A stretch of 45,996 nucleotides of DNA from Hausera hauseri (Eukaryota), in NCBI GenBank assembly GCA_046269625.1, contig JBJURY010000012.1:62001-107996 (forward strand). The letters run 5' to 3'. A model generated the notes under the pieces. The model was not told the DNA's origin. It saw only the letters and a program-made list of their open reading frames with translations, and searched no databases. The position numbers were made by a program, and so were the translations under genes. How positions within the stretch are numbered: the first letter of the stretch is position 1; the number at the start of each line of letters is the position of its first letter. Positions 1 to 45,996 of this stretch are shown here, in pieces.

Positions 1-2125
1 AGTTTATTTTTCTAACCAAATATTTTAAAATATTATAGTAGTAATTTTTACTATTGATATTCAAAGAATGTACATCATATATCCCTATACCATATTCCAT
101 TTTTATATTTAATCCAGATAATATTTTTATTATATTTTTAATATTTTTAGAAGCTTCAATAGATATTACATCTATACCTAAATTATATATTTTTTTTATT
201 ATTGATTTATTAATTTTACTATAACATATATGAGAATGTATTTGAAAATTCTTATTAAAACCATAATGTATTAATCTAAAAGCAATCTTAGTCCATTTAA
301 AATATTTTATTTTTTTACTTAATGATTCTGGAATTCCTTCTTGATAACCAGGTTCATCAATTTGTATTATCTTTATATCATTATATATAAATTCTTTAAT
401 ATATTTTCTTAAACTAAAAGCTATCTGATAAGCTATTTTATTTATCTTTAAGTCATTTCTTAAGAAAGACCATTTTATAATAGTAATAGGTCCAGTAATA
501 ATTGCCTTTACTAAACTATTAGATTTTTTTATCGTAAAATATATTAAATTGAATATATGTTTATTTTTTATACTAATATCCCCAAATATTATTGGAGGTT
601 TAATATATCTGGTACCATAACTTTGTACCCAACCATTTCTAGTAATAAAACAACCATTCATTGATCTACAAAAATATTCTACCATATCAGTTCTTTCGTA
701 TTCACCATGTACTAATATATCTATATTATTATTTTTTTGAAATAATATAAGTTTATTTATTTTATTTAATAAAATATTTTTATAATTAGTGAAACTTAAT
801 TGATTTTTTTTAAATTTACTTCTACATATTCTTAATGCTTTTGTTTGGGGGAAAGAACCAATTGTTGTAAAAGGTAATATTGGTAATTTAAATTTATTAT
901 AATTATTATAATAATGTTTATAATTTTTAATTAATTCTATTATTTTATTATTGATTTTTCTTCTTATATCTTTATAATAAAAAGATTTATTATTAATAAT
1001 ATTATTAATTATTGTTTTATTTTTTTTATATATATTATAACATAAATTTATTCCGTATATTAATATATTTTTTATTTCATTTATTTCAATTACCTTTTCT
1101 AAAGAAAAAGTTAACCAATATTTTATCATTGATTCTTTTTCCTTATTTAAACTATAAGGAATAAACATTAAGGAATTATCAAATGAAATAAATATATTTT
1201 TTATTTTAATGGGGATTATTCTATTAATTATATCCTTATAATTACTTCTCCATATATTATTAGCTTTTATTATACCTAATGATATTCTTTTACAATTGTA
1301 TCTTTCGAATACCAGTATATCTTTTATTAAATATATATCAAAATGATAAATAAAGAAATTTAATCCTTTTAATATTCTCAAGTTATTTATATTAGCATTG
1401 GAATATAATATTAATATTGTTTTTATATTTTTAAAACTTAATAACGATTTATAGATACAATAAAATAAATTGATATCATTATATTTTTTTATATTATAAG
1501 ATTCCTCAAATTGTAACCAATTTATATATTTATATTTTTTAAAAATTTTATTTATTAATAAATAATATCTTCTAACAATTAAATTTAAAATTTTTCTATT
1601 TAAGTTAATTTTAATATTACATAATTTTAAGAAAGTATATGGTCCTATTATAGTATACTTATAGTTTTTTTTATTATTCTTATAATTTTTTAATAATTCT
1701 ATTTCATATAATAAGAAGTCCGTATTATATTTTTTATTAAATATACTATTATCTATTTCAGGAGTTAAATAATGGTAGTTAGTATTATACCATTTATACA
1801 TATTTAATGTTTTTTTATTATTATAACCTTTAGAAATCTTAAAAAAATCAATAAATGTTAAGTACCTGTTTTTTTTTAAAAACCTTTTTGGTAAGAAACC
1901 TAATAAAAACATTGTTATATAAATCCTATCATAATAGTTAAAAAACCCAATAGTAATAATATCTAATTTATTTTGTATATATATATTATACAATATTATT
2001 TTCTTTATTCTATTATAAAAAATAATATAATATTTATTACTTTTATAAAATATTCTCTCAATTATTTCTTTTAATTCTCTATTTTTTCCAATTGATGGTA
2101 ATCCAATAAGGTGAGTTTTAATCAT
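1..2125 (-). CDS. metE: cobalamin-independent methionine synthase (3' end runs off window)
   Basis: Not in ORF track. Hand translation: start MIKTHLIGLPSIGKNRELK; same-frame motifs HGEYERTDMVEYF, GWVQSYG, IQIDEP, HSHICY, GIYDVHS. Confidence 0.95.
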   Translation of the reverse strand, partial: MIKTHLIGLPSIGKNRELKEIIERIFYKSNKYYIIFYNRIKKIILYNIYIQNKLDIITIGFFNYYDRIYITMFLLGFLPKRFLKKNRYLTFIDFFKISKGYNNKKTLNMYKWYNTNYHYLTPEIDNSIFNKKYNTDFLLYEIELLKNYKNNKKNYKYTIIGPYTFLKLCNIKINLNRKILNLIVRRYYLLINKIFKKYKYINWLQFEESYNIKKYNDINLFYCIYKSLLSFKNIKTILILYSNANINNLRILKGLNFFIYHFDIYLIKDILVFERYNCKRISLGIIKANNIWRSNYKDIINRIIPIKIKNIFISFDNSLMFIPYSLNKEKESMIKYWLTFSLEKVIEINEIKNILIYGINLCYNIYKKNKTIINNIINNKSFYYKDIRRKINNKIIELIKNYKHYYNNYNKFKLPILPFTTIGSFPQTKALRICRSKFKKNQLSFTNYKNILLNKINKLILFQKNNNIDILVHGEYERTDMVEYFCRSMNGCFITRNGWVQSYGTRYIKPPIIFGDISIKNKHIFNLIYFTIKKSNSLVKAIITGPITIIKWSFLRNDLKINKIAYQIAFSLRKYIKEFIYNDIKIIQIDEPGYQEGIPESLSKKIKYFKWTKIAFRLIHYGFNKNFQIHSHICYSKINKSIIKKIYNLGIDVISIEASKNIKNIIKILSGLNIKMEYGIGIYDVHSLNINSKNYYYNILKYLVRKIN

Positions 2126-2195
2126 ACTGAAATAATTTAAATTAAAATATCATATTCGTAATATGAATTAACAAGTTGAAATCTTGTTTTCAGTT
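2126..2195 (+). tRNA. tRNA-Thr(CGT), degenerate
   Basis: Cloverleaf ACTGAAA/TTTCAGT, D ATTT/AAAT, anticodon arm TCATA-TTCGTAA-TATGA, T arm ACAAG-TTGAAAT-CTTGT; lacks D-loop GG and TTC. Confidence 0.8.
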
Positions 2196-2198
2196 AAG

Positions 2199-2342
2199 AT
2201 GAAAAAAAGAAGGTATATATTACAGTCAATAATAAATTCTGGTGAAAAATATTATATTAAAGCAAAAAAGCCATATAACAAGGAGATAAAAAAATTTGAT
2301 AAAAAGATTAGAACAAGAATCATATATAAAAGATGTTTGTAA
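2199..2342 (+). CDS. rpmG: 50S ribosomal protein L33
   Basis: 47 aa MKKRRYILQSIINSGEKYY...KKFDKKIRTRIIYK matches L33 pattern; below ORF-track cutoff. Confidence 0.85.
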   Translation: MKKRRYILQSIINSGEKYYIKAKKPYNKEIKKFDKKIRTRIIYKRCL

Positions 2343-4762
2343 ATAAAATAAATAATATATTTAATAAGTATAATTATATAAATAATGAAAAATATATATT
2401 AAAGTTTTGGATTAAGCAAAATATATATAATAAAATATTAAAAGCTAAAAAAAAATATATAACTATACATGATGGTCCACCTTATGCAAACGGTGCAATA
2501 CATATAGGACATATTGTTAATAAAGTAATTAAAGATACTATTATGAAAACTAATAGTAATATATATATTACACCTTTATATTTACCCGGATGGGATTGTT
2601 TTGGTTTATCAATTGAAAATAATATTAAGATACTAAATAAAATCAATAGAAAGGAATTAATAATATGTTGTAAAAGAATGGTTAGAAGGAATATAAAAAA
2701 TAATATATTAATATTTAAAAAAATAGGTATGTTATATGATTGGGAAAAATATTATACTACAATGGATAAAGAAGTAATAAAAAGAGAACAAGCATTTTAT
2801 AGAAAAATATTAAACAAAAAAGTAATATATAAAAAGAAAAGAAATATTTCTTGGTGTATAGGATGTAAAAGTGTATTATCGGATAATGATATTAATATAT
2901 GTGAGATAAATACTACGGTATATAGTATGGTGTTTAAATTAAGAAAAAAAATTGTATTTAAAAAAAATAAACATATTGTTAATAATAAAATATATTTAAA
3001 ATTTAAATCATTATATGATTATTTTTATAATCGATTTATGATATCTAATAAAAATATTATTATTTATATTAATTTAATTAATAATAAAATTATTATATGT
3101 AAAGATAATAATAATAATAATAATTTTTTATATATAAAAAGAATGAATATATTATTATTGAGTAATAAAAAAATAATAAATAATTATTATAATAAATTAT
3201 TATTATTAAGTAATAAAAAATATATAAAAATAAAGATTAATAAATATAAATTAATGGTTTTTAAAAATATTAATTTAATAAATAAAAAAATAATTAATAA
3301 TTTAAATAACAATCTATTTAATAAGACACTTAATAATTATACCACTAGGTTTAATAAAAAAAAATTTTATGTTTGTTCAAAACATAACAAAATAATAGTT
3401 TATAAAAAAAAAGCTCATATATTTTTAAGATTAAATAATTTATTCTTTAAAAATTCTTTATATATAATAAAAAAAATAATATTTTACCCTAAATATTTAA
3501 AGAATAAATTTATAGATATAATATTTAAAAGACCTGATTGGTTATTATCAAGAAATAAAAATTGGGGTGTAAATATTCCTGATAATAAACTTACATTTGA
3601 TATATGGTTTGATTCAGGAGTAACACATTATACAATATTAAAAAATAATTTATATAATAAATTAGTAAGATATCCAGCTGATATTTATATTGAAGGAATA
3701 GATCAATTTAGAGGATGGTTTAATTCTTCTTTTATTACAAGTGTTATTGCATATAATAGATCTCCTTTTAAAAAAATTATTTCGCATGGTTTTGTAGTAG
3801 ATGAAAATAATAATAAATTCTCCAAATCGAAAAAGAATTTTATTTCTTCAATAAAAATAATCCAACAATTTGGAATAGAAATATTACGAATATATATATT
3901 AAAAAGAAATTATTTTAAAAACATAAAGTTCTCTATTAATGATTTAAGGAATGAAAAATATATATATTTAAAGGTGAGAAATATTATAAAGTTTATTATA
4001 AATAATATAAATATAAAAACTAGACCTAATAATGTATATTTTTTATCAATTGATAAATTCTATCTAATAAAATGTGTTATACTAGAGAAAAAGCTTTTAT
4101 TTTATAATAAAAGATTTCTATTCTATAAAAGTATAAAGTTATTATTTAAATTTTTACTAAATAATCTAAATGAATATATTAATATTTCCAAAGATAGATT
4201 ATATCTGTCTTTGGAAAAATATAATAATAAGATATCTAATATATATACTTTTAAAATAATAATAAAATTTTTAACAATTATTTTTTCACCTTATTTTCCG
4301 TTTTTATCAGAAGAAATTTGGAGATATATTGGAGATAAAAAATCAGTTTATTTAACTAAATTAAATAGAATTAATATTTTTAATATAGTTAATAGAAAAA
4401 AAATAATAAAATTATTTTTAATTTGGAAGTTTATATATAATATAAAAAATATTATATTAAGTAAACTAAGATATTTTAAAAATAAATATAACTATAATAT
4501 TATTAATAATATAAATATATATCTATATTTTAGATATAGATATATAAAAATAATGTATATAATAAATAAAGAATTCTGTAATTTAATAAAATGTAATAAA
4601 ATAAAAATAAAAAAGAGTAGTAAAGATTGTATAAAAATAAAAATATCTAGAAATAAAAAATGTATAAGATGTTGGAAATATAATAATATAACTAATTATA
4701 TTTGTAAAAAATGTATTCTATTAATAAATAAAAAAAAACAAAGAAAAATGTTATTTATATAG
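2333..4762 (+). CDS. ileS: isoleucine--tRNA ligase
   Basis: HDGPPYANG, HIGH, PGWDC, DWLLSR, EGIDQFRGWF, KFSKS, C-terminal CxRCW zinc motif. Confidence 0.95.
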   Translation: MFVNKINNIFNKYNYINNEKYILKFWIKQNIYNKILKAKKKYITIHDGPPYANGAIHIGHIVNKVIKDTIMKTNSNIYITPLYLPGWDCFGLSIENNIKILNKINRKELIICCKRMVRRNIKNNILIFKKIGMLYDWEKYYTTMDKEVIKREQAFYRKILNKKVIYKKKRNISWCIGCKSVLSDNDINICEINTTVYSMVFKLRKKIVFKKNKHIVNNKIYLKFKSLYDYFYNRFMISNKNIIIYINLINNKIIICKDNNNNNNFLYIKRMNILLLSNKKIINNYYNKLLLLSNKKYIKIKINKYKLMVFKNINLINKKIINNLNNNLFNKTLNNYTTRFNKKKFYVCSKHNKIIVYKKKAHIFLRLNNLFFKNSLYIIKKIIFYPKYLKNKFIDIIFKRPDWLLSRNKNWGVNIPDNKLTFDIWFDSGVTHYTILKNNLYNKLVRYPADIYIEGIDQFRGWFNSSFITSVIAYNRSPFKKIISHGFVVDENNNKFSKSKKNFISSIKIIQQFGIEILRIYILKRNYFKNIKFSINDLRNEKYIYLKVRNIIKFIINNINIKTRPNNVYFLSIDKFYLIKCVILEKKLLFYNKRFLFYKSIKLLFKFLLNNLNEYINISKDRLYLSLEKYNNKISNIYTFKIIIKFLTIIFSPYFPFLSEEIWRYIGDKKSVYLTKLNRINIFNIVNRKKIIKLFLIWKFIYNIKNIILSKLRYFKNKYNYNIINNINIYLYFRYRYIKIMYIINKEFCNLIKCNKIKIKKSSKDCIKIKISRNKKCIRCWKYNNITNYICKKCILLINKKKQRKMLFI

Positions 4763-4843
4763 AAATAGTTGGATTTGAACCAACGACATATAATATGTTC
4801 CCCCTTAGCAGGGGGGTGCATTAAACCCCTCTGCCATATCTCT
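4760..4843 (-). tRNA. tRNA-Ser(GCT)
   Basis: CCCCC-CTGCTAA-GGGGG anticodon arm, long variable arm, GTTCAAATC T loop, AGAGATA/TATTTCT acceptor. Confidence 0.93.
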
Positions 4844-6044
4844 ATAATAGTCTTGTAAAAATATTTATGATTTTTTTATAATATTTTTCTTTTACAAATA
4901 ATAATATTTTTACTTCTGTAATATATAAATGTTCTATTGGATATTTTTTTTTAATATTTGTTATTAATCTATTAATATTATATTTGCTAATAATAAAATT
5001 TAATAATGTTATTTTTATTAATATTTTTCTATTAATATAAGAACAATATCTGCTAAAATTATTTATATAATAATTATATTTACTATTAATAGCTTTGTCA
5101 ATTAAATCATTACTATCATTTAATTTAATGGATAATAAATAAATAGTATTATTATTTATCTTAAAATATGATATGATGTCTGATATTTTATATATTTTAT
5201 ATATATTATTATTACATAACCTATATTTATTACTTAATATACATCTTATAAAATATACCTTTTGATAAGTGATATATTTGTTTTTTTTACTAAAAGTTAT
5301 ATCAGTACCTGAAGTAAAATCTTTTTTCATATTTTTATTTTTAAAGCTTGATAAAATTTTTAATTTTACTTTATATTTTATACAGTTTTTAACAGACCTA
5401 AATTGTAAAACTTTTGCTCCGTTACTTGTTAGTTCTAATATATCTATAGGTTCTATAAATTTTATTCTTTTTGCTTTCTTAAACTTATTAGGATCAAGAT
5501 TATAAACTCCATCCACATCTGTATAAATATAACAAAAATTACTATTCATTATATAGCTTAATATAATAGCAGTATAATCAGATCCTCCTCTACCTAAGGT
5601 ATGAATATTATTATTATTACTATCAATACCATAATATCCAGTTACAATAACTATATAATTTTTTTTTAAATATTTATTAATCTTAGTTTTATTTATTGAT
5701 CCTATTTTAGAATCCCCATATTTACCTTTTGTGAATATGGGGATTTGCCATGAATTCAAAGATACAGATCTAGCTCCATATTTATTTAAAAATATACTTA
5801 ATAAACTACAAGAGATCTGTTCACCAGATGAAACTAATAAATCTTTTTCTCTTTCTATTGAATTATTAATATAACCAATTTTATTATATAAACCAAGTAA
5901 ATTATTAGTCGTATTTCCCATAGCGGATACAACTATTATTAACTTAATATTATTTTTATACCAATGTATTATTTTTTTAGCTATAAATTTAATCTTTTTT
6001 AAACTAGATAATGAAGATCCACCAAATTTCAACACTATTAACAT
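4842..6044 (-). CDS. lysC: aspartate kinase
   Basis: VLKFGGSS, VVSAMG, TLGRGGSDYTA, TDVDGVY..DP. Confidence 0.95.
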   Translation of the reverse strand: MLIVLKFGGSSLSSLKKIKFIAKKIIHWYKNNIKLIIVVSAMGNTTNNLLGLYNKIGYINNSIEREKDLLVSSGEQISCSLLSIFLNKYGARSVSLNSWQIPIFTKGKYGDSKIGSINKTKINKYLKKNYIVIVTGYYGIDSNNNNIHTLGRGGSDYTAIILSYIMNSNFCYIYTDVDGVYNLDPNKFKKAKRIKFIEPIDILELTSNGAKVLQFRSVKNCIKYKVKLKILSSFKNKNMKKDFTSGTDITFSKKNKYITYQKVYFIRCILSNKYRLCNNNIYKIYKISDIISYFKINNNTIYLLSIKLNDSNDLIDKAINSKYNYYINNFSRYCSYINRKILIKITLLNFIISKYNINRLITNIKKKYPIEHLYITEVKILLFVKEKYYKKIINIFTRLL

Positions 6045-6958
6045 TTCAATAATATATAAAAAACATTTATTTTAAACAGCAAAACTTTATTTGCTAATTT
6101 AATTATATTTATTTTATTTATAAAACAATTAATATTTTTAAAGGTATTATATATAGTATTATTAATAATATTATTTTTTAAAAAAATATATCTAAAAATA
6201 TTTATTATTCTTTTATTTTTTCTTAAATTATTCATTATTATATCTTTTTTTGCAATATAATTATTTAAATTAATAAATTCATATAATCTTTTATTTAATC
6301 TATTTATATTATATATTCTATCACCAAAATATTTATATAAAATATTATTATATAAATATCTTACTATATTTCTTTTATATTGAAAATTTATATTAGAATT
6401 ATCGAAAATATAATTTTTTTGTTTATTTATTTCTAACATCCTAATCCTAGAAAGGGATAATAAAGGTCTAATTAAGGTTATATATTTTAGTTTAGTTTTA
6501 TATTTCATATTTATTAATCCTCTAATTCCTGTACCTCTTAATATTCTTAATATAAAATTTTCAATATAATCATTATAATTATGCCCTAAAAAATAATACT
6601 TTATTTTATTTTTTAAATAAATATTTAATAAACAATTGTAACGATATTTTCTAGCAGCGGATTCCAACCCATATAACTTAATATATTTATATTTTATTTT
6701 TACTCTCTTATATATAATATTCATATCTCTCTTTTTACATATTTCCTTTATATATTTTTCCCATAATTTACTTTTATTATTTAATAAATGATTAATATAT
6801 ATTATATATATATTTTTTTTAAATATATTAAAATATTTTAATATATAGTCTAGTAGGTAATTAGAATCATATCCTCCACTAAAACATATACCAATTTTAT
6901 TTTTACTAATTATATTATATATATCGTCTTTAATGTATTTATCTGTGAATAATAACAT
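6038..6958 (-). CDS. tilS: tRNA(Ile)-lysidine synthetase
   Basis: SGGYDS PP-loop, ESAARKYRY, GHNYND, RGTG, IRPLL. Confidence 0.93.
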   Translation of the reverse strand: MLLFTDKYIKDDIYNIISKNKIGICFSGGYDSNYLLDYILKYFNIFKKNIYIIYINHLLNNKSKLWEKYIKEICKKRDMNIIYKRVKIKYKYIKLYGLESAARKYRYNCLLNIYLKNKIKYYFLGHNYNDYIENFILRILRGTGIRGLINMKYKTKLKYITLIRPLLSLSRIRMLEINKQKNYIFDNSNINFQYKRNIVRYLYNNILYKYFGDRIYNINRLNKRLYEFINLNNYIAKKDIIMNNLRKNKRIINIFRYIFLKNNIINNTIYNTFKNINCFINKINIIKLANKVLLFKINVFYILLKC

Positions 6959-7820
6959 GAATAAAATAAAAGGAATAATTACTGCATTAATAACCCCATT
7001 TAAAAAAAATAAAAATATTGATTATATTTCCTTATATAATCTATTAAGATATCAAATAAATAATAATATAAAAAAGTTCGTTATATTAGGAACAACCGGA
7101 GAATCTACTAGTTTAACAATAACAGAAAAGATTAAAATGTTAAGTTTTATAAGAAAAAAATTTAAAAATATTAAAATAATATCTGGATCTTGTTATAATA
7201 GTATAAGTAATACAATATACTTGAACAATAGGATTAAAAAATATTCTAATTATATATTACAAATAGTACCTTATTATTTAAAACCTAATCAAAAAGGAAT
7301 ATATTTGTATATCAAAAAGATATGTTTGTATACTAATACACCTATTATTATTTATAATGTTGAATATAGAACAGGAATAGTTTTAAAAAGAAAAACATTA
7401 TTAAAATTATCTAAAATAAATAATATAATAGGTATAAAATATTCATGTTTAAATATAAAAAAAATAACACATATAATAGCCTTTATAAAAAAGGAAAACA
7501 GAAAGTTTTTATTCTTTTGTGGAGATGATAAATATATTATAAATATATTAAAAAAAAGTGACGGTGCAATATCAATACTTTCTAATTATAACCCAGGAAT
7601 AATAAATAAAATATATTCTTGTATTAAACAGAAAAGAAATATCAATAGTATTAAATTATTAAATAAACAAATTAAAATATTAAGCTTAGAAATTAATCCA
7701 GTTATAATCAAATACATATGTTATTTAAAAAAAATAATATCTAATTATATGGTAAGATTACCGTTGATTAGTATAAATAAAAGAAATAAAGTAATAATAA
7801 ATAATTTGAAAGGAAGATAA
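6957..7820 (+). CDS. dapA: 4-hydroxy-tetrahydrodipicolinate synthase
   Basis: ALITPF, GTTGES, PYY, YNV, IGIK; start moved to MNKIKG. Confidence 0.95.
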
Positions 7821-8338
7821 TGAAAGAAAAAAGTTATTTTATAATAGAAGCAGGGGTAGGAGGTAAAGATTCTTATGGTTGTTTACTACTATTAAAAAAA
7901 ATGTATATAAAATATTTAAATAGAAATAAAATAATATATAATATAATAATAAATACTATAAGAACATTAATTATTAATATAAAAGATATTAAATTTCTTA
8001 GATATGAGGTAGGGATTCATAGGGTGCAAAGAGTACCTAAGACGGAAAAGTTTAATAGAATCCATACATCAATAGTATCAGTCGATATAATTAATAGAAT
8101 CCCTACAAAAGATACTATTATAATTAATAAAAAAGATATTATTATAGAAACATTTAAATCCTCTGGAGCAGGAGGACAACATATTAATAAAACTAACTCA
8201 GCGGTAAGAATAAAACATTTACCTACTGGTTTAAAGGTAGAATGTCAGAAAGAAAGATCACAGTTCTTAAATAAAAAAGAAGGATTGAAAATATTGGAGA
8301 ATAAAATAATATATGAAGAACATACTAATAAAAAATAG
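7820..8338 (+). CDS. prfA: peptide chain release factor 1, truncated (172 aa)
   Basis: [10 protein letters not shown] (RF1 PxT motif), [24 protein letters not shown]. Confidence 0.88.
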
Positions 8339-9359
8339 TTTTTATAAAATAAATTATTTCTTTTATCTTATTATATTTACTAAATGATATCCTAACAGAA
8401 TTATTTATATATTTTTTTTTTAATTTTATCTTCCTTAATATAAAAGATATATTATTAGAATTACAAGTAGAATTTTTCGAATATGCAGTTTTAATATTAT
8501 AAAATTTATTATTATTTTTAATATATCCAAAGTTAATTATATCAGGAATTTTATTATATATACAACCATTTATAAAATATTCACTATAACTTAATATAGT
8601 AAATAGTAATAAATTACTTAAACAAATAATTGATTTTATTTTTCTAATTATCTTAATTGTTTTAGCTAACCCTAATATTTGATAAGTAGGTAAAGTACCT
8701 GGAAACAATATATGTAGATCTTTATTATAAAATAATATTTCTTTTTGTATCCTTTTCCTAATAAATATAACACCTATACCTTTAGGACCGTATATTTTAT
8801 GCGTTGAGAATGATAGAATATCTATTCCTATTCTTTTAAGATTAATAGTAATTTTTCCTATACATTGAGTATAGTCTATAAAATATATATTTCGTTTTAT
8901 TATATTAATGCTTTGTCTCACACCAATTTCATTATTTATTATATTAATAATAGCATTACTAAGTATATTTTTATTATTATATATACCTCTCTTATTATTG
9001 TTAATATAATATATTTTATAGTGTTTTCTTCCCGTTTTATTCTTTAAACTTTTTATATATTTTAATATTGTAGGATGTTCTAAGTTTGATATAGATATAT
9101 TTTTATTTAGATTTATTAAATACTTAATAGCAATAATATTACCTTGTGTTGACCCAGATGTAAAAAATATTTCATTTGATTTACATTTTAAATAATCTGC
9201 AATTATAGTTTTTGCTTTATTAATTAATTTATTTACTTCGAAACCTAATATATGATTAGAAAAGCTATTAGCATAGTATTTAAAACTATTATTAATTATA
9301 TTTTTAACTTTAATATCAATATCAGTAGTTGAAGCATTATCAAAATAAATAATTTTCAT
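8325..9359 (-). CDS. iscS: cysteine desulfurase
   Basis: [32 protein letters not shown], catalytic-loop Cys (STC). Confidence 0.9.
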
Positions 9360-11929: not shown

Positions 11930-12547
11930 ATGTTAAGTATATATATTAAAATTATAAGTGATTTATTAAAAAAAAATATACTTAATAAAATTAAATCAAT
12001 CTATTTCGGAGGTGAGAGTATAATATTTAATTATTTATTTTATAAATTAACTAATAATATTTTTAAGAATAATAATATTATTATCTATTCTTTTAAGAAT
12101 AGATATAAAAAAAAAATAAGTAATATAAGAATTATTAATATTAATAAAATAAGTAATATAAAAATAGATCTTTTTATATCTGAGATCTTATATTATAATA
12201 AAAATAATATTATAATTAAAAAAAATAATAAATTCTATATAGAAAATATACTAATTAAGTTATCTAGTTTAAATATATATTATTTACTTGATTATAATAG
12301 ACAATATAAAAACAATATTATAAAATATGAATTTAAAAATGCTTCAAAATATATCCTTGATAAAAAATATCTAAAGAATATTAATACCTTTGATAATAAC
12401 ATTATATTAAGTATAAATAATAAAAAGAAGGTAAAAATAAATAATAAATTAATTAAAATACCTGGTTATATATCATCAAATTTAATAAAAAAAAATAATA
12501 ATACTATAATTTATTGTATTAATAAAGAAAAAGTATATATTAAATGA
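11930..12547 (+). CDS. rpiA: ribose-5-phosphate isomerase A-like, catalytic motifs eroded
   Basis: Length and pattern: IYFGGES, IDLFI, DNNIIL, KLIKIPGYISSNLI. Confidence 0.6.
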   Translation: MLSIYIKIISDLLKKNILNKIKSIYFGGESIIFNYLFYKLTNNIFKNNNIIIYSFKNRYKKKISNIRIININKISNIKIDLFISEILYYNKNNIIIKKNNKFYIENILIKLSSLNIYYLLDYNRQYKNNIIKYEFKNASKYILDKKYLKNINTFDNNIILSINNKKKVKINNKLIKIPGYISSNLIKKNNNTIIYCINKEKVYIK

Positions 12548-13281
12548 AATTTATTAAAATGCATTCTTGTGGAAATGATTTTATTATAACAACAAAAAAA
12601 TTTAATATTAGCATTTGTAATAGAAATATAGGTATAGGATGTGATCAAGCAATACAGATAATAGATATAAAAAAATATATATTAAGATGTATTATATATA
12701 ATAATGATGGAAGTAAAGCTTATAATTGTGGTAATGGTATTAGATGTCTAGGATATTATATATTTAAAAAAAGAAAAATAGATTACTTGAAAGTTATTAT
12801 TAAAGATTATAAATATAATTTATGGAGAATAAATAAAACATATATATTATTTAGTGTAATACAATACTTTAATAAATATAAGAAATATTTATTTTTACCA
12901 AAAAATTTATATATATTAAATTATAATTTAAATATATTTATAAATTATAATATAAATTATAATTTATATTTTTCTTTTTTTTTTATTGGTAACTATCATA
13001 TTATAATTTATAAGAAATATAAAAGAATAATAAAACAATATAATAAAAAATTTAATATAACAATATTAAAACATAACAATATTAAAACAATTGAAAGAGG
13101 TTCTGGGATAACATATTCATGTGGAACAGCAAATTGTTCTGCACTTCTATATTACTCACTGATATATAATATAAGATTAATCAAATTAACAAATCGTTTA
13201 GGATATTTATATTTATATTTATATAAACATAGAATACTTTTAATAGGAAAAACTAATATAGTCTATAAAGGAATAATATGA
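12544..13281 (+). CDS. dapF: diaminopimelate epimerase
   Basis: MKFIKMHSCGNDF, GIGCDQ, NNDGS..NCGNG.RC, ERGSG.T.SCGT. Confidence 0.95.
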   Translation: MKFIKMHSCGNDFIITTKKFNISICNRNIGIGCDQAIQIIDIKKYILRCIIYNNDGSKAYNCGNGIRCLGYYIFKKRKIDYLKVIIKDYKYNLWRINKTYILFSVIQYFNKYKKYLFLPKNLYILNYNLNIFINYNINYNLYFSFFFIGNYHIIIYKKYKRIIKQYNKKFNITILKHNNIKTIERGSGITYSCGTANCSALLYYSLIYNIRLIKLTNRLGYLYLYLYKHRILLIGKTNIVYKGII

Positions 13282-13547
13282 TATATATTAACGCTAAGAA
13301 TAAAAGTATAGGTAGATTAAAAAATAATATAATCAACTTTATAAATAAATATAATAAAAACAAAATCAAGGTGGTTAATTTTAATCAGTTAAGAATAAAC
13401 AAAAAAAAGTACATTAAAAGGTATACTGGATATCCAGGAGGGATAAAAAAATATAAACTAAAAGAAATATTTAATAAACCTATATATTATATTAATTATA
13501 TAAGAAAAATAACTAATATATACAACAATATATTAATTATATTATGA
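13278..13547 (+). CDS. rplM: 50S ribosomal protein L13 (short, 89 aa)
   Basis: INA....IGRL, YTGYPGGIK; upstream of rpsI. Confidence 0.88.
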   Translation: MIYINAKNKSIGRLKNNIINFINKYNKNKIKVVNFNQLRINKKKYIKRYTGYPGGIKKYKLKEIFNKPIYYINYIRKITNIYNNILIIL

Positions 13548-13936
13548 TTGGCTTTTATTATTATGGTAAAGGAATAAAAAAAAAATCAATAGCTAAGGTA
13601 TTTATAAAAGATACTAGGAAAAAAAATGGATTAATAATAGTTAATAATAAATTGTTGATAGAATATTTTAAAAAAGATGGAATAGAGAATATATATTATA
13701 TTTTATCTTTAATAAAAAAGAAATTTTATATTAATATTATAGTGAATGGAGGAGGAATTATAAGTCAAATTATGGCAATAAAATTAGCTATTTCCAAAGC
13801 CTTACTAAACCTTAATACCTTTAATAATAATATTATTAAATATAATAAGCTAATTACTACAGATTCTAGAAGAGTAGAAAGAAAAAAAGTTGGATTGCAT
13901 AAATCAAGAAAAGCTCCGCAATATTCTAAAAGATGA
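13544..13936 (+). CDS. rpsI: 30S ribosomal protein S9
   Basis: GGG..SQ, DSRRVERKKVGLHKSRKAPQYSKR. Confidence 0.97.
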   Translation: MIGFYYYGKGIKKKSIAKVFIKDTRKKNGLIIVNNKLLIEYFKKDGIENIYYILSLIKKKFYINIIVNGGGIISQIMAIKLAISKALLNLNTFNNNIIKYNKLITTDSRRVERKKVGLHKSRKAPQYSKR

Positions 13937-14961
13937 TATATATAAAGAACAATTTATATTATTTTTTTAAATATAATTTTATTTATACTAATAAAATTAC
14001 ACTAAAACTAAAATTAGGTATAGATCCTACAGGTTGTTCTTTGCATTTGGGACACTATTTTTTATTAAATAATATTTTTATTTTAAAAAAAATAATTAAT
14101 ATTAAAATCATATTATTAATAGGAAATTATACAGCGGGTTTAAATAATAAAATTAAACAAAAAAAAATATTATTTTATTCTATAAGTATAATAAAACAAC
14201 TAATAAAAATATTTATTAATAATAATATAAAGTATAAACTATATTACAATAATTATTGGTTTAATATAAAAACTATTAATAGTTTTTTTATTATATTCAA
14301 AGGTTTAAAAATTGTAAACATTATTAATACAAATAATAAAAAACAAATAAATCAATACTTATATCCTTTATTCCAAGCTTATGATAATTATATTCTAAGA
14401 CCTGATATAGAAATAGGAGGGATTGATCAAAAGTGTAATTTTAAAATGTGTTTTCTTAATAGAATTAAAAAAATTTATTTTTTTCTATTTGAATTATTAT
14501 TAGATGAAAATAAAAACAAAATATCCAAAACATTAAATAAAAACTACAATCTGAATACAATAAAATATACTTATTATTATTTTATAAGTAATAAAAACAA
14601 ATTTATATTATACTTATATAAAAGATTTAAAGGAATTATTAAATTTATTAGAATAAAAAATAGAATAAAAACCGTTAATTTATATTATAGTATAATATAT
14701 AATATATATAAGGATAAAAAGATACTAAAGTATTTATATTATAATAAATATAAGATATATAAAATAACTAAAAAAATAAAACTCATAAGATTACTTGTAT
14801 TAATAAAGATTACGAACTCCTTAAGGGAATCAAGAATAATTATTAATAAGATATATATAAATAATAAGATAATACACAATACTTTTAAATATATTAGAAA
14901 AAAAGGAGTCTATAAATTAAACTATAAGAAATATAACATATATATATTGAAGATTATATAA
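13933..14961 (+). CDS. tyrS: tyrosine--tRNA ligase
   Basis: GIDPTG.SLHLGH, YPLFQAYD, EIGGIDQ, KISKT, S4-like tail. Confidence 0.92.
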   Translation: MIYIKNNLYYFFKYNFIYTNKITLKLKLGIDPTGCSLHLGHYFLLNNIFILKKIINIKIILLIGNYTAGLNNKIKQKKILFYSISIIKQLIKIFINNNIKYKLYYNNYWFNIKTINSFFIIFKGLKIVNIINTNNKKQINQYLYPLFQAYDNYILRPDIEIGGIDQKCNFKMCFLNRIKKIYFFLFELLLDENKNKISKTLNKNYNLNTIKYTYYYFISNKNKFILYLYKRFKGIIKFIRIKNRIKTVNLYYSIIYNIYKDKKILKYLYYNKYKIYKITKKIKLIRLLVLIKITNSLRESRIIINKIYINNKIIHNTFKYIRKKGVYKLNYKKYNIYILKII

Positions 14962-15154
14962 TATTAAAGAAATTAAATATAATATTTTTTTTTATATATA
15001 TATTAATATTATTTTTAATATTAATAATAATATTATTACTAATATTATTATTATTTTTAATAAATCTAATACTTTTTGCTTTAAATGTAATTAATAATAA
15101 TTTTTTAATTAGTAATAATTTTTTAATTAGTAATAATTTTTTAAATATATTCAT
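14954..15154 (-). CDS. small protein (66 aa), possibly a diverged RNA polymerase omega subunit
   Basis: Fills the tyrS/tRNA-Asn gap; LLLITFKAKSI resembles the omega motif (TYRARQL-like); size fits. Confidence 0.4.
   Translation of the reverse strand: MNIFKKLLLIKKLLLIKKLLLITFKAKSIRFIKNNNNISNNIIINIKNNINIYIKKNIIFNFFNII
15088..15141. repeat. 3 x 18-bp tandem repeat (TAATTA(A/G)TAATAATTTTT), in frame, encoding KKLLLI x3
   Basis: Read directly; one mismatch between units. Confidence 0.85.
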
Positions 15155-15163
15155 CAATATTCC

Positions 15164-15236
15164 CAATTTAACTTAGAATTGAACTAAGGACACATGGATT
15201 AACAGTCCATTGCTCTACCAACTGAGCTATTAAACT
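15164..15236 (-). tRNA. tRNA-Asn(GTT)
   Basis: GCTCAGTTGGTAGAGC D arm, ATGGA-CTGTTAA-TCCAT, GTTCAATTC. Confidence 0.95.
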
Positions 15237-15664
15237 TTTCTATTAGTAATTAAATTACCATATATATGGTCATATTCATGTTGTATAAATATTGAATTAT
15301 TATTCTTTATATATAATAATATTTTTTTATAGTTTATGTTAATATATATAATAACGATATACTTTCTTCTTTTAATTAATCTATATAAATAAAGTAAAGA
15401 TAAACAACCCTCAAAAGAGGAAATATATTTTTTACTAAACCATATTATCTTAGAATTAATAAATACATTAAAATTAAATATTTTTTTATTAGAAATAAAA
15501 GTATTATTTAATTTCCCTAATTGTGATAATGCTAAACCTAATGCTTTTTCTTTACGTATTATAACCATTGCTTTAATTATAATAATATATATAATTAGAT
15601 CTATATGTATTAAATTACTACTTTTGTTAAATAAAATCTTATTTGGATATCTTAATAAGTTCAT
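15230..15664 (-). CDS. def: peptide deformylase
   Basis: LGLALSQLG, EGCLS, QHEYDHIYG; start moved to MNLLRYP. Confidence 0.93.
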   Translation of the reverse strand: MNLLRYPNKILFNKSSNLIHIDLIIYIIIIKAMVIIRKEKALGLALSQLGKLNNTFISNKKIFNFNVFINSKIIWFSKKYISSFEGCLSLLYLYRLIKRRKYIVIIYININYKKILLYIKNNNSIFIQHEYDHIYGNLITNRKV

Positions 15665-15893
15665 GAATAAATATATATATATATATTGAATTTCAATATG
15701 TACAAAATGTAGAAAGATAAAATATATAATAAATAATATAAATTTAAATAGAATTAAATATATAAAATATGATAAAATGTATGATAAAATAAACATATAT
15801 ATAAATATTTTCCCGGCTATAGGATATAATAATTATATATCAAATAATAATATATTAAAGAAAATTATTATTATATTAAAGAACAATTTATAA
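15663..15893 (+). CDS. thioredoxin/glutaredoxin-fold protein with in-frame TGA at codon 9 (readthrough gene or pseudogene)
   Basis: MNKYIYIY*ISICTKCRKI...INIFPAI...: CxxC and cis-Pro loop; frame exactly fills the def-rpsJ gap. Confidence 0.6.
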
Positions 15894-27187: not shown

Positions 27188-27574
27188 TTACAAATTAAAG
27201 CTTTTTAAAGTACCTTTGATTATCTTAAAACATTTATTCTTATCTAAGGTGTTAAAATCTAACTTCTTAATATCATAAATATAATTCAATAATTTATTAT
27301 TATATAGACATTTTTTTTTCTTACTTAAATCAAAAATCTTAATAGCGTAACTTACCAGAACTGAAATAGTAGGAGGTTTAATTGTAAATTTAAAACCTGA
27401 TCTTAAAATATTAATAAATACTCTATAATATAAATTTTTATTTAATAACTTAGTCTTACTATTAAACTCATTACAAAAGGTATTTATATTTATTTTATTC
27501 TGTCCTAAAACAGAAGATAATGGGGGTTTTGGAAAAGCTTTCATAGGTTTTATGTATAATTTTATAACATTCAT
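27188..27574 (-). CDS. rplK: 50S ribosomal protein L11
   Basis: PKPPLSSVLGQ, FCNEFN, KPP, GT.KS; upstream TTG extension lies inside tRNA-Trp. Confidence 0.92.
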   Translation of the reverse strand: MNVIKLYIKPMKAFPKPPLSSVLGQNKININTFCNEFNSKTKLLNKNLYYRVFINILRSGFKFTIKPPTISVLVSYAIKIFDLSKKKKCLYNNKLLNYIYDIKKLDFNTLDKNKCFKIIKGTLKSFNL

Positions 27575-27644
27575 AGAGATAAAAGGATTTAAACCTTTAA
27601 AAATGGTTTTGGAAACCAAAACTTTATCGTTAAGCTATATCTCT
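27574..27644 (-). tRNA. tRNA-Trp(CCA) with U27.U43 mismatch
   Basis: AGAGATA/TATCTCT, GCTT/AAGT, TTGGT-TTCCAAA-ACCAT, AAAGG-TTTAAAT-CCTTT; tuf-tRNA-Trp synteny. Confidence 0.9.
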
Positions 27645-28822
27645 ATCTTAGTTATAACACCTGCTCCAATAGTTTTACCACCCTCCCTGATGGCAAATTT
27701 TAACTGTTCTTCTAAAGCAATTGAAGAACATAATTCAACTTTAATATTAACACTTTCTCCAGGAAGGACCATTTTTTTTTCTTTATCTAATTTTATTATT
27801 CCTGAAACATCAGTTGTTCTAAAATAAAACTGGGGTTTATAGTCACTAAAGAAAGGAGTATGTCTACCTCCTTCCTCCTTTGATAATATATATATATTTG
27901 CATAAAATTTTTTATAAGGTTTTATACTACCAGGTTTTGATAAAACTTGTCCTCTTCTTATATCCTCTCTTTTTATTCCTCTTAATAAAATTCCTATATT
28001 ATCACCTGACTGCCCATATTGTAATACTTTATTAAACATTTCTATGCCTATACAAACAGTTTGAATAGTTTTTTTTAAACCTACAATTTCAATATTATCA
28101 TTATTTTTAATTACACCTCTCTCTATTTTACCAGTAGCAACAGTTCCTCTACCTGGAATGGAAAACACATCTTCTATAGGCATTAAAAAATCCTTCTTGT
28201 TATTATTAACAGGTGGATCTATATATTCATCCAAATAATTCGCTAAACTTACTATAGAATTAATACCATACTTATCTTTAGAACCTTCTAAAGCTAATTT
28301 AGCTGATCCTCTAATAAAAGGGGTTTTATTACCATTAAAATTATATTTATTTAATAATTCTCTAACTTCAATTTCAACCAGATCTATTTCCTCATCATCT
28401 TTTATTAAATCACATTTATTTATATAAACTAAAATCTTAGGCACTCCAACCTGCCTTGCTAACAATATATGTTCTCTAGTTTGTGGCATAGGGCCATCAA
28501 CAGCAGAACAAACTAAAATAGCACCATCCATTTGTGCTGCTCCTATTATCATATTTTTAACATAATCTGCATGACCAGGACAATCAACATGCGCATAATG
28601 TCTATCTTTTGTCTCATACTCAACATGAGTTGTATTAATAGTGATACCCCTTTCTTGTTCCTCAGGTGATGAATCAATCTCATCATATTTCTTAATCTTT
28701 CCACCATATTTTTTTGATAAAACACAAGTTATAGCAGAAGTCAATGTTGTTTTACCATGATCTACATGTCCTATAGTACCAATATTAACATGAGTTTTAT
28801 TTCTTACAAACTCCAATTTCAT
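27635..28822 (-). CDS. tuf: elongation factor Tu
   Basis: [32 protein letters not shown]. Confidence 0.99.
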
Positions 28823-28828
28823 AAACTT

Positions 28829-28900
28829 AACTTATAATTGGAATTGAACCAAAATCATTTTCCATACTAGAGAAAATCTTTACCTTTAAGTTATATAAGC
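28829..28900 (-). tRNA. tRNA-Thr(AGT)
   Basis: GCTTATA/TATAAGT, TTTCT-CTAGTAT-GGAAA, GTTCAATTC; occupies the Thr slot of the Tyr-Gly-Thr-tuf cluster. Confidence 0.87.
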
Positions 28901-28901
28901 T

Positions 28902-28972
28902 AGCGAACAATGAGGATTGAACTCATATTGTAAACTTGGAAGATTTATACTTTACCATTAAGATATGAACGC
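28902..28972 (-). tRNA. tRNA-Gly(TCC)
   Basis: TAAAT-CTTCCAA-GTTTA, GCG...CGC-T acceptor end, GTTCAATCC. Confidence 0.92.
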
Positions 28973-41409: not shown

Positions 41410-42150
41410 AAAAGTAAGAGTTTGATCCTGGCTCAGATTTAACGCTAGCGGTATGCATAACACATGCAAGTTTAACAATTGTTTAATTGTAGCGTACGGG
41501 TGAGTAATATATTGGAATGTAATTCAAAGATTACAATAACTTTTTGAAAAAAAAGGTAATATGTTTATAAATTCTTTTAAATTAATATAAGAAAAAAGTG
41601 TTAAATATTTTAACACGCTTTGAAAACAGCCGATACTAGATTAGTTAGTTGGTAAGATAATAGCTTACCAAGACAATGATCTATAGTTGTTCTGGAAGGA
41701 AGACCAACCACATTGGGATTGAAAAAAGGCCCAAACTCCTACGGGAGGCAGCAGTGAGGAATATTGGACAATGAGCGAAAGCTTGATCCAGCAATACCGC
41801 GTGTGTGATGAAGGTTTAACTACTGTAAAACACTTTTTTCTAGGAATAAAAAATATTTGATATATAATGAAAACACTAGAAGAATAAGTACCGGCTAATT
41901 ACGTGCCAGCAGCCGCGGTAATACGTAAGGTGCGAGCGTTAATCGGAATTATTGGGCGTAAAGAGTATGTAGGCTGAATATTAAGATATTCATAAAATCC
42001 TTATGCTCAACATAAGGAAGTGAATATTACTAATATTCTAGAATGTAAAGGGGGAGAATAGAATTCTACAAGTAGTAGTGAAATGCACAGATATGTAGAG
42101 GAATACCGAAAGCGAAAGCAATTCTTCAATTTACTATTGACGCTAAAGTA

Positions 42151-42931: not shown

Positions 42932-44696
42932 ATAATGTTTATAGAGGATGCCTTGGCATTCAGAGGCGATGAAGGACGTATTAAAAACGAAAATTATGAG
43001 TATTAATTTAGAATCATAAGTATCCGAATTGGGAAACCAGATTTTTCATTGTTTCTACAACAAAGCTAACGTAATGAACTGAAACATCTTAGTAATTACA
43101 GGAAAAGAAATCAAGTGAGATATTTCCCAAGTAGCGGCGAGCGAAACGGAACAAGCCGATATATTTTATTATGAATATTATCATAAACTTTTTGAATATA
43201 GTGCCATAGAAGGTAAAAGCCCTGTTTGTTAAAATATTCATAAAGAACTAGATATATCAAAAATTAAAATAAAACACGAGAAATTTTATTTGAATAAGGA
43301 AGACCATTTCCTAAGGCTAAATACTACTGAATGACCGATAGTGAACTAGTACCGTAAGGGAAAGGTGAAAAGAACTTTATAAAAATGTGAAAAGATCCTG
43401 AAACTGTAAACAAAAAATCAATCAGAGCTTTTTTTAGTAATGATGTACCTTTTGTATAATGGGTCAGCGACTTATATTTAGTAGCAAGCTTAACTATAAA
43501 GGGAGGCGAAGATAATCCAAGTTTTAAATAAACGTCAAGTTTCTAAATATATACCCGAAACCAGACGATCTATCCATGAACAGAATGAAGGTATCTGAGG
43601 TTCGAACTCACTAACGTTGAAAAGTTAGGAGATGATTTATGGATAGGAGTGAAAGGCTAATCAAGTTTGGAGATAGCTGGTTCTCTTCGAAAGCTATTTA
43701 GGTAGCGTATTGTTTTAAAATTACAGGGGTAGAGCACTATATTAATAGTCTATATTATAATAAACTCCGAATACTGTTAATTTATAAAATAATAAACAGA
43801 CTATGGGTGATAACATTCATAGTCGAGAGGGAAACAACCCAGATCATAAGCTAAGGTCCCGAAATAATATCTAAGTGGTAAACGAAGTTTCAAAACAAAT
43901 ACAATTAGAAGGTAGGCTTAGAAGCAGCCATCCTTTAAAGATAGCGTAAAAGCTCACTAATATAGTTTTGATGCGCGGAAAAATAAACGGGGCTAAGATA
44001 TTTACCGAAGCTATGAATAAATTTTATTTTATGGTAGAAGAGCGTTCTGTAAATCGAAGAAGATATTTTGTGAAAAATATTGGAGATATCAGAAGTGAGA
44101 ATGCTGACATTAGTAACGATAAAGAAAGTGAAAAACTTTCTCGCCGTAAATCTAAGGTTTCCTACGCAATGTTAATCAACGTAGGGTTAATCGGTCCCTA
44201 AGATGAGGCTTCAGCGTAGTCGATGGAAATTAGGTTAATATTCCTAAATTTTTTTTAAAAGTGAAGGTATAAAATTTATACTCAGATTAGTAAATAATAA
44301 AATATTTATATATAAGTAAAACTTAGAAGATAAAAAAACTGCTTCAAATAGTTTCATTATATCCAATATATCATATTGTTAATTTGAAATAAATCTAGAA
44401 AATTACCTAAACAAATTTTAAAAAAAGCCGTACTAAAACTGACACAAGTGGATAAGAAGAGTATTCTAAGGCGCTTGAGACAACTTAGGAGAAGGAACTC
44501 GGCAAATTTGTACCGTAACTTAGGGATAAGGTATACCAAATATATAATTTATATTGGTCTAAGAAAAAAGGTAGTTGCGACTGTTTAATAAAAACACAGC
44601 ACTCTGCAAACATGAAAATGGAAGTATAGGGTGTGACGCCTGCCCAGTGCTGAAAAACTAAAATTTATTTGTGAATAGCAAATCTATTAAATCTCA

Positions 44697-45169: not shown

Positions 45170-45268
45170 AAGTACTCAATCGACACCTCTGAAATAAAGC
45201 CCTACTTCGAACTCTGGAGAGTTCTTGAAAAAGGCGTGTTTTATGCCGCAAATAGGCTTTACGGTTTG
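45152..45268 (+). other. fragment of a bacterial M3 (Dcp-like) metallopeptidase gene, foreign to this genome
   Basis: EQLRKQKYSIDTSEIKPYFELWRVLEKGVFYAANRLYGL matches the recalled Dcp pattern KPYFE..VL..GVFYAA..LYG. Confidence 0.7.
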
Positions 45269-45319
45269 GACACTGCCATGGTGCTCCTCCATGTTCCTCT
45301 CATGACACTAACATGTTAG

Positions 45320-45996
45320 CACCATGATGATAAATCACCAACATCAGATTGCGGTTCGAGAGAAAACGATATTAAATCTCCTCCGGCAGCTCATCAAGCG
45401 AATTTCAATGGTGTTGCAGGTGCAAATGCACTGGGCTCTATCAAACATGGTATTGCGATAAATAACATTTCTCCAATAGTAGCACCAACAAATATCACCC
45501 ATTTAGTTGGTTCATTGCCCGTAACATGGAATACAGGACAAGCAATCACGGCCTTGTTGTCGTCAAATGCCGGAAACAATCCTTTGACGATTCTAACTCG
45601 AAAGGATCTTTCTTCAAATTCCCAGGGTATTACCAATTCTGTTCAAAACCAATCGACAATCAATAACAATAACATCCTGACACTTTCCCCACAATTGAAT
45701 CATCTCATTGCTGCTCCGTCACTTGCCGGTTGTCTTTCTACTGTCGTAACCTCTTTGCCGACCTCCGGGTCGAATCAGATCTCAAATGGCGATGTGCCGT
45801 CCAATCAGATGGTTGCGTTGAGTAACATCATATCCACTCTCAACAACGCTCTTGTTGCCAGCCAACAGCAAAATCAACCACAACCACAGCCACAACAACA
45901 ACAGCAGCAACAGCAACAACAACAACATCAACAGTCGTCTCAGCAGGTTGGCCAGAAACAAAGTTCACAAGTCACAAATATCAATGCGATTTTGAT
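45320..45996 (+). other. eukaryotic (fungal-like) exon encoding a low-complexity S/N/Q-rich protein, open to window end
   Basis: Stop-free frame from 45320, preceded by CTAAC (45308-45312) and TAG acceptor; GC far above host. Confidence 0.65.
45863..45934 (+). repeat. CAA/CAG polyglutamine tract
   Basis: QQQNQPQPQPQQQQQQQQQQQHQQ. Confidence 0.9.

Follow-up and report, generated by a model that had tools for sequence, protein, structure and literature searches.

It has long been asked in which order the events follow by which UGA passes from stop to tryptophan, i.e., whether the release factor, the tRNA or the loss of the codon comes first; almost all of the known cases are end states. One form of tRNA-Trp(CCA) that is discussed in this respect has an anticodon stem of four base pairs. 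In Escherichia coli, the C27A variant, in which the top of the stem is unpinned, increased UGA read-through approximately 2.5-fold, and an in vitro study that the same paper cites saw no effect of C27A by itself (PMC13092985). According to the accessible part of that work, there are 757 genes of this form, which was found in 70 of the 201 genomes in which UGA encodes tryptophan (34.8%) compared to 8.9% of all tRNA-Trp(CCA) genes, and it is the sole tRNA-Trp(CCA) in approximately 6.5% of the standard-code bacteria (PMC13092985). The four-pair shape by itself is known and common, and does not imply recoding.

Among the closest described systems, bacteria such as Zinderia insecticola and XS4 share with the Vidania analysed here an unpinned top pair, a 7-nt anticodon loop, the lack of A9C and G24A and a sole tRNA-Trp (PMC13092985), and all are reduced betaproteobacterial insect symbionts without RF2. 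In Zinderia, however, the change is complete and UGA is read as tryptophan in 59% of the genes (PMC10540940, Table 2), whereas here there is one candidate in-frame TGA, 27% of the genes end in TGA and the mismatch is U·U, which lies outside the six variants simulated and the one assayed in the accessible part of PMC13092985. In Portiera aleyrodidarum, also an insect symbiont, prfA and prfB share identical tracts in direct orientation as they do here, but these tracts measure 56-172 bases, surround GGQ and leave the specificity motifs untouched (PMC3673631), while the tract in Vidania covers approximately 430-450 bases, the RF2 motif is replaced by PKT and the C-terminus of RF2 is gone. Providencia siddallii PSAC, PSOF and PSLP resemble our case in having only tRNA-Trp(CCA), in being at an early stage of the passage from code 11 to code 4 and in the occurrence of UGA both at the gene ends and within genes; however, they have kept prfB, either intact or with a UGA of its own, and have 9-125 genes with in-frame UGA (PMC10540940). 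In the Vidania described here, the identity of RF2 was erased first and in-frame UGA is barely present, which is the reverse order. Finally, the published Vidania agree with this one in their gene content, truncated RF1, dapA-prfB order and loss of trpS, but they are described as keeping prfB and UGA as a stop, and the accessible parts of these reports mention neither a conversion of prfB nor read-through (PMC10333215, PMC12992758, PMC12691624). No report of prfB conversion or UGA reassignment in Vidania was found in the literature searched, which was mostly outside the subscription journals.

What is new here is the setting of a tRNA type that is itself known, a testable setting in which RF2 has been overwritten and UGA still closes genes. 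That RF2 could be overwritten while UGA closes 27% of the frames is contrary to codon-capture reasoning. Moreover, Vidania is cited as the betaproteobacterial symbiont in which prfB and UGA as a stop have been retained, and is used as such in arguments on its own origin, and the repeated losses of prfB in the published Vidania make the question testable by comparison.

The contig and its organism

The window, i.e., the whole stretch of 45,996 nucleotides that was analysed, is the final 46 kb of contig C12 (107,996 bases, 20% GC) from an assembly of 869 Mb. Based on its overlapping genes, the amino-acid pathways that are present and the nearest relatives of its RF1, we identify this contig as Ca. 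Vidania fulgoroideae, a betaproteobacterial symbiont of planthoppers. The best four matches in the RF1 search were all Vidania (47-51% identity), and the amino-acid genes on the contig (His, Met, Arg, Trp, Lys and Thr as well as shikimate) correspond to the gene content of Vidania. A fusA scan of genome contigs for its relatives returned 19 loci, all of which were unrelated, and class and order searches gave no genome smaller than 400 kb among the matches listed. One genome marked as unpublished was excluded from every analysis.

Release factor genes

The following features of the window concern the release factors:

7820..8338, + strand: release factor gene at the prfB locus (dapA - RF - iscS) with an RF2-type start and an RF1 core, the C-terminal part being absent
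7820..7898, + strand: unconverted 5' remnant, likely prfB (profile match; resembles Vidania PENLEP PrfB by eye)
7899..8324, + strand: tract copied from prfA (51 + 359 identical bases)
8036-8044, + strand: RF1 motif PKT within the copied tract
8171-8179, + strand: GGQ within the copied tract

The gene at 7820-8338 spans positions 109-280 of the 347-position RF1 profile, and approximately 65 C-terminal positions are missing. It does not qualify as an RF2, having PKT instead of SPF, an incomplete domain 2/4 and prfA as its best whole-protein match. Its first 42 amino acids gave a match to a prfB model (E 0.0078) and none to the models for prfA. On our own profiles, the 5' remnant scored 6.8 bits for RF2 compared to 5.7-6.2 bits for RF1, a weak signal that is backed by the dapA-prfB synteny; a search for homologues of the first 45 residues of the protein found none. 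In Vidania PENLEP, prfB is located directly downstream of dapA on the iscU side with prfA approximately 10 kb away (PMC12691624, rows of Table S2), and the layout is alike here, the gene at 7820-8338 lying at the syntenic position of prfB.

The prfA gene (C12:59392-60090, just upstream of the window) encodes an ordinary Vidania RF1 whose canonical determinants are kept and are the same as in 11 other Vidania RF1s. PKT is found in both class I release factor genes of the contig, and no protein with SPF and GGQ was found in its six frames (107 kb). Searching the whole assembly with a prfB profile gave 11 matches, which on contig C12 were only these two genes; the others were on seven contigs with 34-44% GC. 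As regards the status of prfB, which the original prediction had proposed as a check, the prfB locus, with PKT, tracts shared with prfA and no C-terminus, no longer encodes RF2.

The decay of RF2 seems to recur across the genus since PENLEP PrfB has SKT at the SPF site (by eye) and prfB was scored as absent, without comment, in 10 of the 69 published Vidania (PMC12992758, Supplementary Data 4). Given the SKT in PENLEP, Vidania may long have coped with UGA while lacking a canonical RF2.

UGA at gene ends and within genes

The use of UGA is illustrated by the following features of the window:

11930..13936, + strand: four consecutive genes including dapF, rplM and rpsI with ATGA ends; next TAA/TAG after 13, 9, 9 and 2 codons
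30134..40010, - strand: eleven TGA-ending genes, most of them for ribosomal proteins or infA, with a TAA/TAG following 0-13 codons on
15663..15893, + strand: degenerate 76-codon frame that resembles thioredoxin (trxA-like) and has CTKC (weak profile match)
15687..15689, + strand: in-frame TGA followed by A, codon 9 of the trxA-like frame (alignment to thioredoxins)

Among the 119 frames of at least 70 codons on the contig, 32 (27%) end in TGA with the next TAA or TAG 0-13 codons on, and 26 of these ends are ATGA overlaps with the next start; many belong to essential ribosomal proteins, and GroES, RpsD, RpsK and RplP are among the abundant proteins whose genes end in TGA. Read-through would add 0-13 codons past the tryptophan with a median of 2 compared to a median of 4 in the frame-matched controls (p 0.075). 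The six TGA genes without an overlap have a mean of 2.3 codons to the back-up stop compared to 10.6 in the TAA/TAG genes (p 0.029), and the two tests of distance combined gave a post hoc p of 0.009. Outside the ATGA overlaps, TGA closes 6 genes and TAG 22 (p 0.034 against the off-frame background). Both the back-up distance and the depletion of TGA fit, albeit modestly, a long-standing weak termination at UGA that is buffered by nearby stops.

The original prediction had also named the count of in-frame TGA as a check, and here the outcome went against it: the 119 frames hold 117 TGG codons and a single candidate in-frame TGA at 15687, even though the other boxes of A- and G-ending codons have 80-87% A. 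Recoding is therefore not established. Of the features that define code 4 bacteria of the type of Zinderia, Nasuia and Stammera, the absence of RF2 holds within the 107 kb of a genome that is not closed, and in-frame TGA at conserved tryptophans falls far short of >50% of the genes; an established code 4 was rejected on the codon counts. A tRNA with a UCA anticodon was not found in the 107 kb, and a scan of all of the inter-gene gaps with translation table 4 gave no second convincing in-frame TGA.

The trxA-like frame lies between def and rpsJ, taking up the gap and overlapping the two genes. Its TGA aligns, within a weak profile match, to the tryptophan four residues before the first cysteine, which is invariant in 36 of 36 thioredoxins. 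On our own profile of these 36 thioredoxins, the frame scored 13.6 bits when TGA was read as W (1 of 2000 shuffles scored as high) and 7.8 bits when it was read as X (6 of 3000), and it was the top scorer of the 703 frames of the contig. The W-x3-CxxC motif is present in 15663-15893 only when TGA is W, and CTKC replaces CGPC. The frame has 76 amino acids compared to approximately 105 in a full-length thioredoxin, matched no Pfam or NCBIfam model and had no homologues in two large searches; the structure predicted from its sequence alone was of too low confidence to be used (pLDDT 46). Among 20,000 shuffles, 137 contained an open frame as long as this one, a figure to which we give little weight because the antisense frame is nearly open too. 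The gene after rpsJ in Vidania PENLEP, which is at the position of the trxA-like frame, is cspA; this identity was rejected for 15663-15893, which scored -1.9 bits for cspA with 881 of 2000 shuffles as high. By our own count of the published tables, trxA is functional in 23 of the 69 Vidania and absent from approximately two thirds. We read 15663-15893 as a degenerate trxA with a TGG to TGA change for which both read-through and a pseudogene are possible; a gene that is being lost and had acquired a nonsense mutation would look identical.

The reading that we tentatively favour, with confidence a little short of even, is that the loss of RF2 leaves UGA to the sole tRNA-Trp(CCA), helped by its open 27:43 position, and that this Vidania is at an early and leaky stage of the UGA-to-Trp change. 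A copy of prfA has replaced most of the RF2 gene, and UGA is likely left without a release factor; the truncated RF1/RF2 chimera presumably cannot read it. The tRNA-Trp(CCA) would then decode UGA slowly, the unpaired 27:43 easing the C34:A mispair, and the 32 TGA-ending proteins would gain a tryptophan and a median of 2 residues before finishing on RF1. Near-cognate decoding may be too slow, or the loss of RF2 too recent, for TGG to TGA changes to have spread, which would explain why only the weakly constrained trxA-like gene carries a TGA. It is possible, at somewhat less than even odds, that this represents the first step of UGA reassignment by a route that was not described in the literature searched, in which a prfA conversion erases RF2 at a time when a quarter of all genes close on UGA and the 4-bp-stem tRNA reads through to the back-up stops, all before in-frame UGA spreads. 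If true, each of the ten published Vidania that lack prfB would independently repeat this transition, which would have gone unrecognised because these genomes annotate well under code 11.

It is also conceivable that UGA is still a stop through a relaxed RF1, the chimera or a host factor, with a trxA-like frame that has become a pseudogene and a tRNA that has simply eroded. The 32 genes that close on TGA, many of them essential, and the failure of in-frame TGA to spread are what would be expected in such a case. Moreover, no code change was reported for the ten prfB-less Vidania (the term 'genetic code' occurs 0 times in the main text of PMC12992758), Vidania lack many synthetases and are thought to rely on host factors, and trxA is missing in approximately two thirds of them. 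The determinants of RF1 are, however, unchanged, the chimera has PKT and lacks approximately 65 C-terminal profile positions, and back-up stops are nearby and free-standing TGA stops are depleted. On balance, we consider that UGA is unlikely to have remained a stop.

tRNA-Trp(CCA)

The tRNA and its surroundings comprise the following features of the window:

27574..27644, - strand: tRNA-Trp(CCA) (ARAGORN and Rfam, 60.3 bits)
27603..27619, - strand: anticodon arm UUGGU-UUCCAAA-ACCAU with the anticodon CCA at 27612-27610
27635..27644, - strand: 10 bases shared by the 5' end of the tRNA and the end of tuf (its final codons and TAG)
27572..27574, - strand: likely ATG start of rplK (translation from 27574; L11 domain)

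Both programs confirmed the predicted tRNA-Trp(CCA) at 27574..27644, which is the sole tRNA-Trp in the 107 kb, with U27 (27619) and U43 (27603) unpaired and four Watson-Crick pairs beneath. The remaining stems are intact (7/7, 4/4 and 5/5 pairs). All of the loop oddities that had been pointed out earlier are present, i.e., a D loop without GG (AACGAUA), a T loop with UUU (UUUAAAU) and the discriminator A73. The G19-C56 pair is a tertiary contact between the D loop and the T loop in tRNAs. Among the 25 tRNAs of the contig, U56 occurs only in Trp and Pro, both of which have GAU in the D loop, the G19 position being an A. The peculiarities of the two loops are one compensated change from G19-C56 to A19-U56, not decay. 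A pseudo-tRNA was rejected on account of the intact remaining stems and the compensated elbow pair. With its CCA anticodon, 4-bp stem and 7-nt loop, the tRNA corresponds to the structural definition of the Blastocrithidia-like type of tRNA-Trp(CCA) (PMC13092985), and having A9 and G24 in the Rfam alignment, it carries neither A9C nor G24A, which is the second characteristic of that type.

Position 27:43 is paired in all 28 tuf-linked tRNA-Trp of free-living relatives in metagenomes, most commonly as U-A (11 of 28); these tRNAs were drawn from a tuf scan of metagenomes that gave 80 free-living loci with an identity of 69% or less. Since all 28 pair at 27:43, most often as U-A, a change of A43 to U is suggested as the origin of U27·U43.

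The original prediction that this tRNA supplies tryptophan at the TGA at 15687 with an unchanged anticodon gains support, mainly because the prfB locus no longer encodes RF2, and the TGA falls on the tryptophan position of thioredoxins; the 4-bp stem is a plausible contributor to UGA decoding rather than its established cause. The mismatch could instead be incidental AT-driven decay, UGA becoming tryptophan solely because its competitor RF2 was lost. Stammera reads UGA as tryptophan with a 5-bp tRNA-Trp(CCA) (PMC13092985, section 18), and stem mismatches are found in 11 of the 25 tRNAs of the contig (19 in total, roughly 4% per pair), including tRNA-Ser(AGA), the only other one with a non-pair at 27:43 (2 of 25). 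However, 27:43 is the experimentally relevant position and the other pairs are kept or compensated; from the rates for 27:43 and per pair among the 25 tRNAs, a mismatch at precisely this place has a probability of approximately 0.04-0.08. We consider it decidedly unlikely that UGA is read as tryptophan with a purely incidental mismatch.

As regards the charging of the tRNA, a search of the assembly found no trpS at a Vidania-like GC content, and trpS is absent in 50 of the 69 published Vidania. The discriminator for TrpRS is A73 in eukaryotes and G73 in bacteria (PMC12135181), and by this sequence feature, A73 would fit charging by a host enzyme. The discriminator is, at the same time, the A of the likely rplK ATG (an overlap of 1 base) and may therefore be fixed by the start codon. 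The absence of trpS bears on every read-through model for this tRNA. Because the tRNA overlaps the stop of tuf and the start of rplK, its maturation and intact mRNAs require different transcripts; 11 of the 119 genes of the contig terminate within a tRNA gene.

Other tRNAs of the contig also have unusual features. Three A34 tRNAs in four-codon boxes, Thr AGT (window 28828-28901, - strand), Val AAC (C12:26838-26910) and Ser AGA (C12:48344-48428), each occur beside a U34 isoacceptor and are apparently derived from G34. In bacteria, A34 is rare except in Arg ACG. The bodies of tRNA-Asn, -Phe and -Lys are homogenised (Asn and Phe are 96% identical across 68 bases) as are both tRNA-Gly genes (window 15164-15236 and 28902-28972; C12:43655-43727, 27786-27858 and 43362-43434), which raises the question of tRNA identity.

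Assembly of the locus

Nine public runs contain the release factor region at 0.95-0.98 of its words. Contigs of four of these runs (Logan assemblies) were compared over window 7700-9000; these runs show the repeat at roughly double depth, and in three of them it formed one unitig of 450 bases. In run X3, the repeat had a depth of 47 compared to 25.5 and 26 for its flanks, and in run X9 the depth was 12-14k compared to approximately 6k on both window flanks with records that enter both of them; the cover of the iscS flank was scant in runs X2, X3 and X5, which are uninformative in this respect. The duplication between prfA and the prfB locus is real. The runs possibly come from one biological source and thus support the assembly rather than replicate the strain.

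The contig is incomplete: argG, tRNA-Ala and the end of the 23S rRNA are all missing from it and were not found elsewhere in the assembly for this organism. At window ~45170-45996, the 23S rRNA gives way to a eukaryote-like sequence that codes for Gln repeats, i.e., a chimeric join, across which a long Rfam LSU call is misleading. Compared to the 450-base unitig of three runs, the copy in the window is shorter by 24 bases, the difference being in one patch (7950-7965). It is very improbable that everything described here is artefactual and due to gaps or a wrong join in the contig, with an intact prfB or a tRNA-Trp(UCA) in the missing part: the chimeric end, the missing genes, at least one doubtful assembly patch in the shorter copy and the lack of a single run record spanning the whole locus speak for it, but the release factor gene lies where synteny places prfB, the repeat is present in two copies in independent Logan assemblies and the X9 records reach both flanks.

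A contig with argG, C101765, was considered as the missing part and rejected since its rRNA is 75-80% identical. Its positions 1-6428 (C101765:1-6428) come from a second AT-rich reduced bacterium and carry an rRNA operon, argG, tRNA-Ala and an rsmH-like gene. On contig C12, another paralogue conversion tract was observed between trpG and carA, which share 48 identical bases across the catalytic Cys motif (C12:57367-57414 and 41946-41993). At window 14954-15166, beside tRNA-Asn, there is a spacer, rich in AT and containing a short tandem repeat, that is unusual for so dense a genome, and similar AT runs occur at the start of the contig. The dapE gene is apparently split (C12:22087-23129), a TAG separating it from a 55-codon piece that lies upstream, and rpsF and rpsR form a single fused frame (C12:20122-20649).
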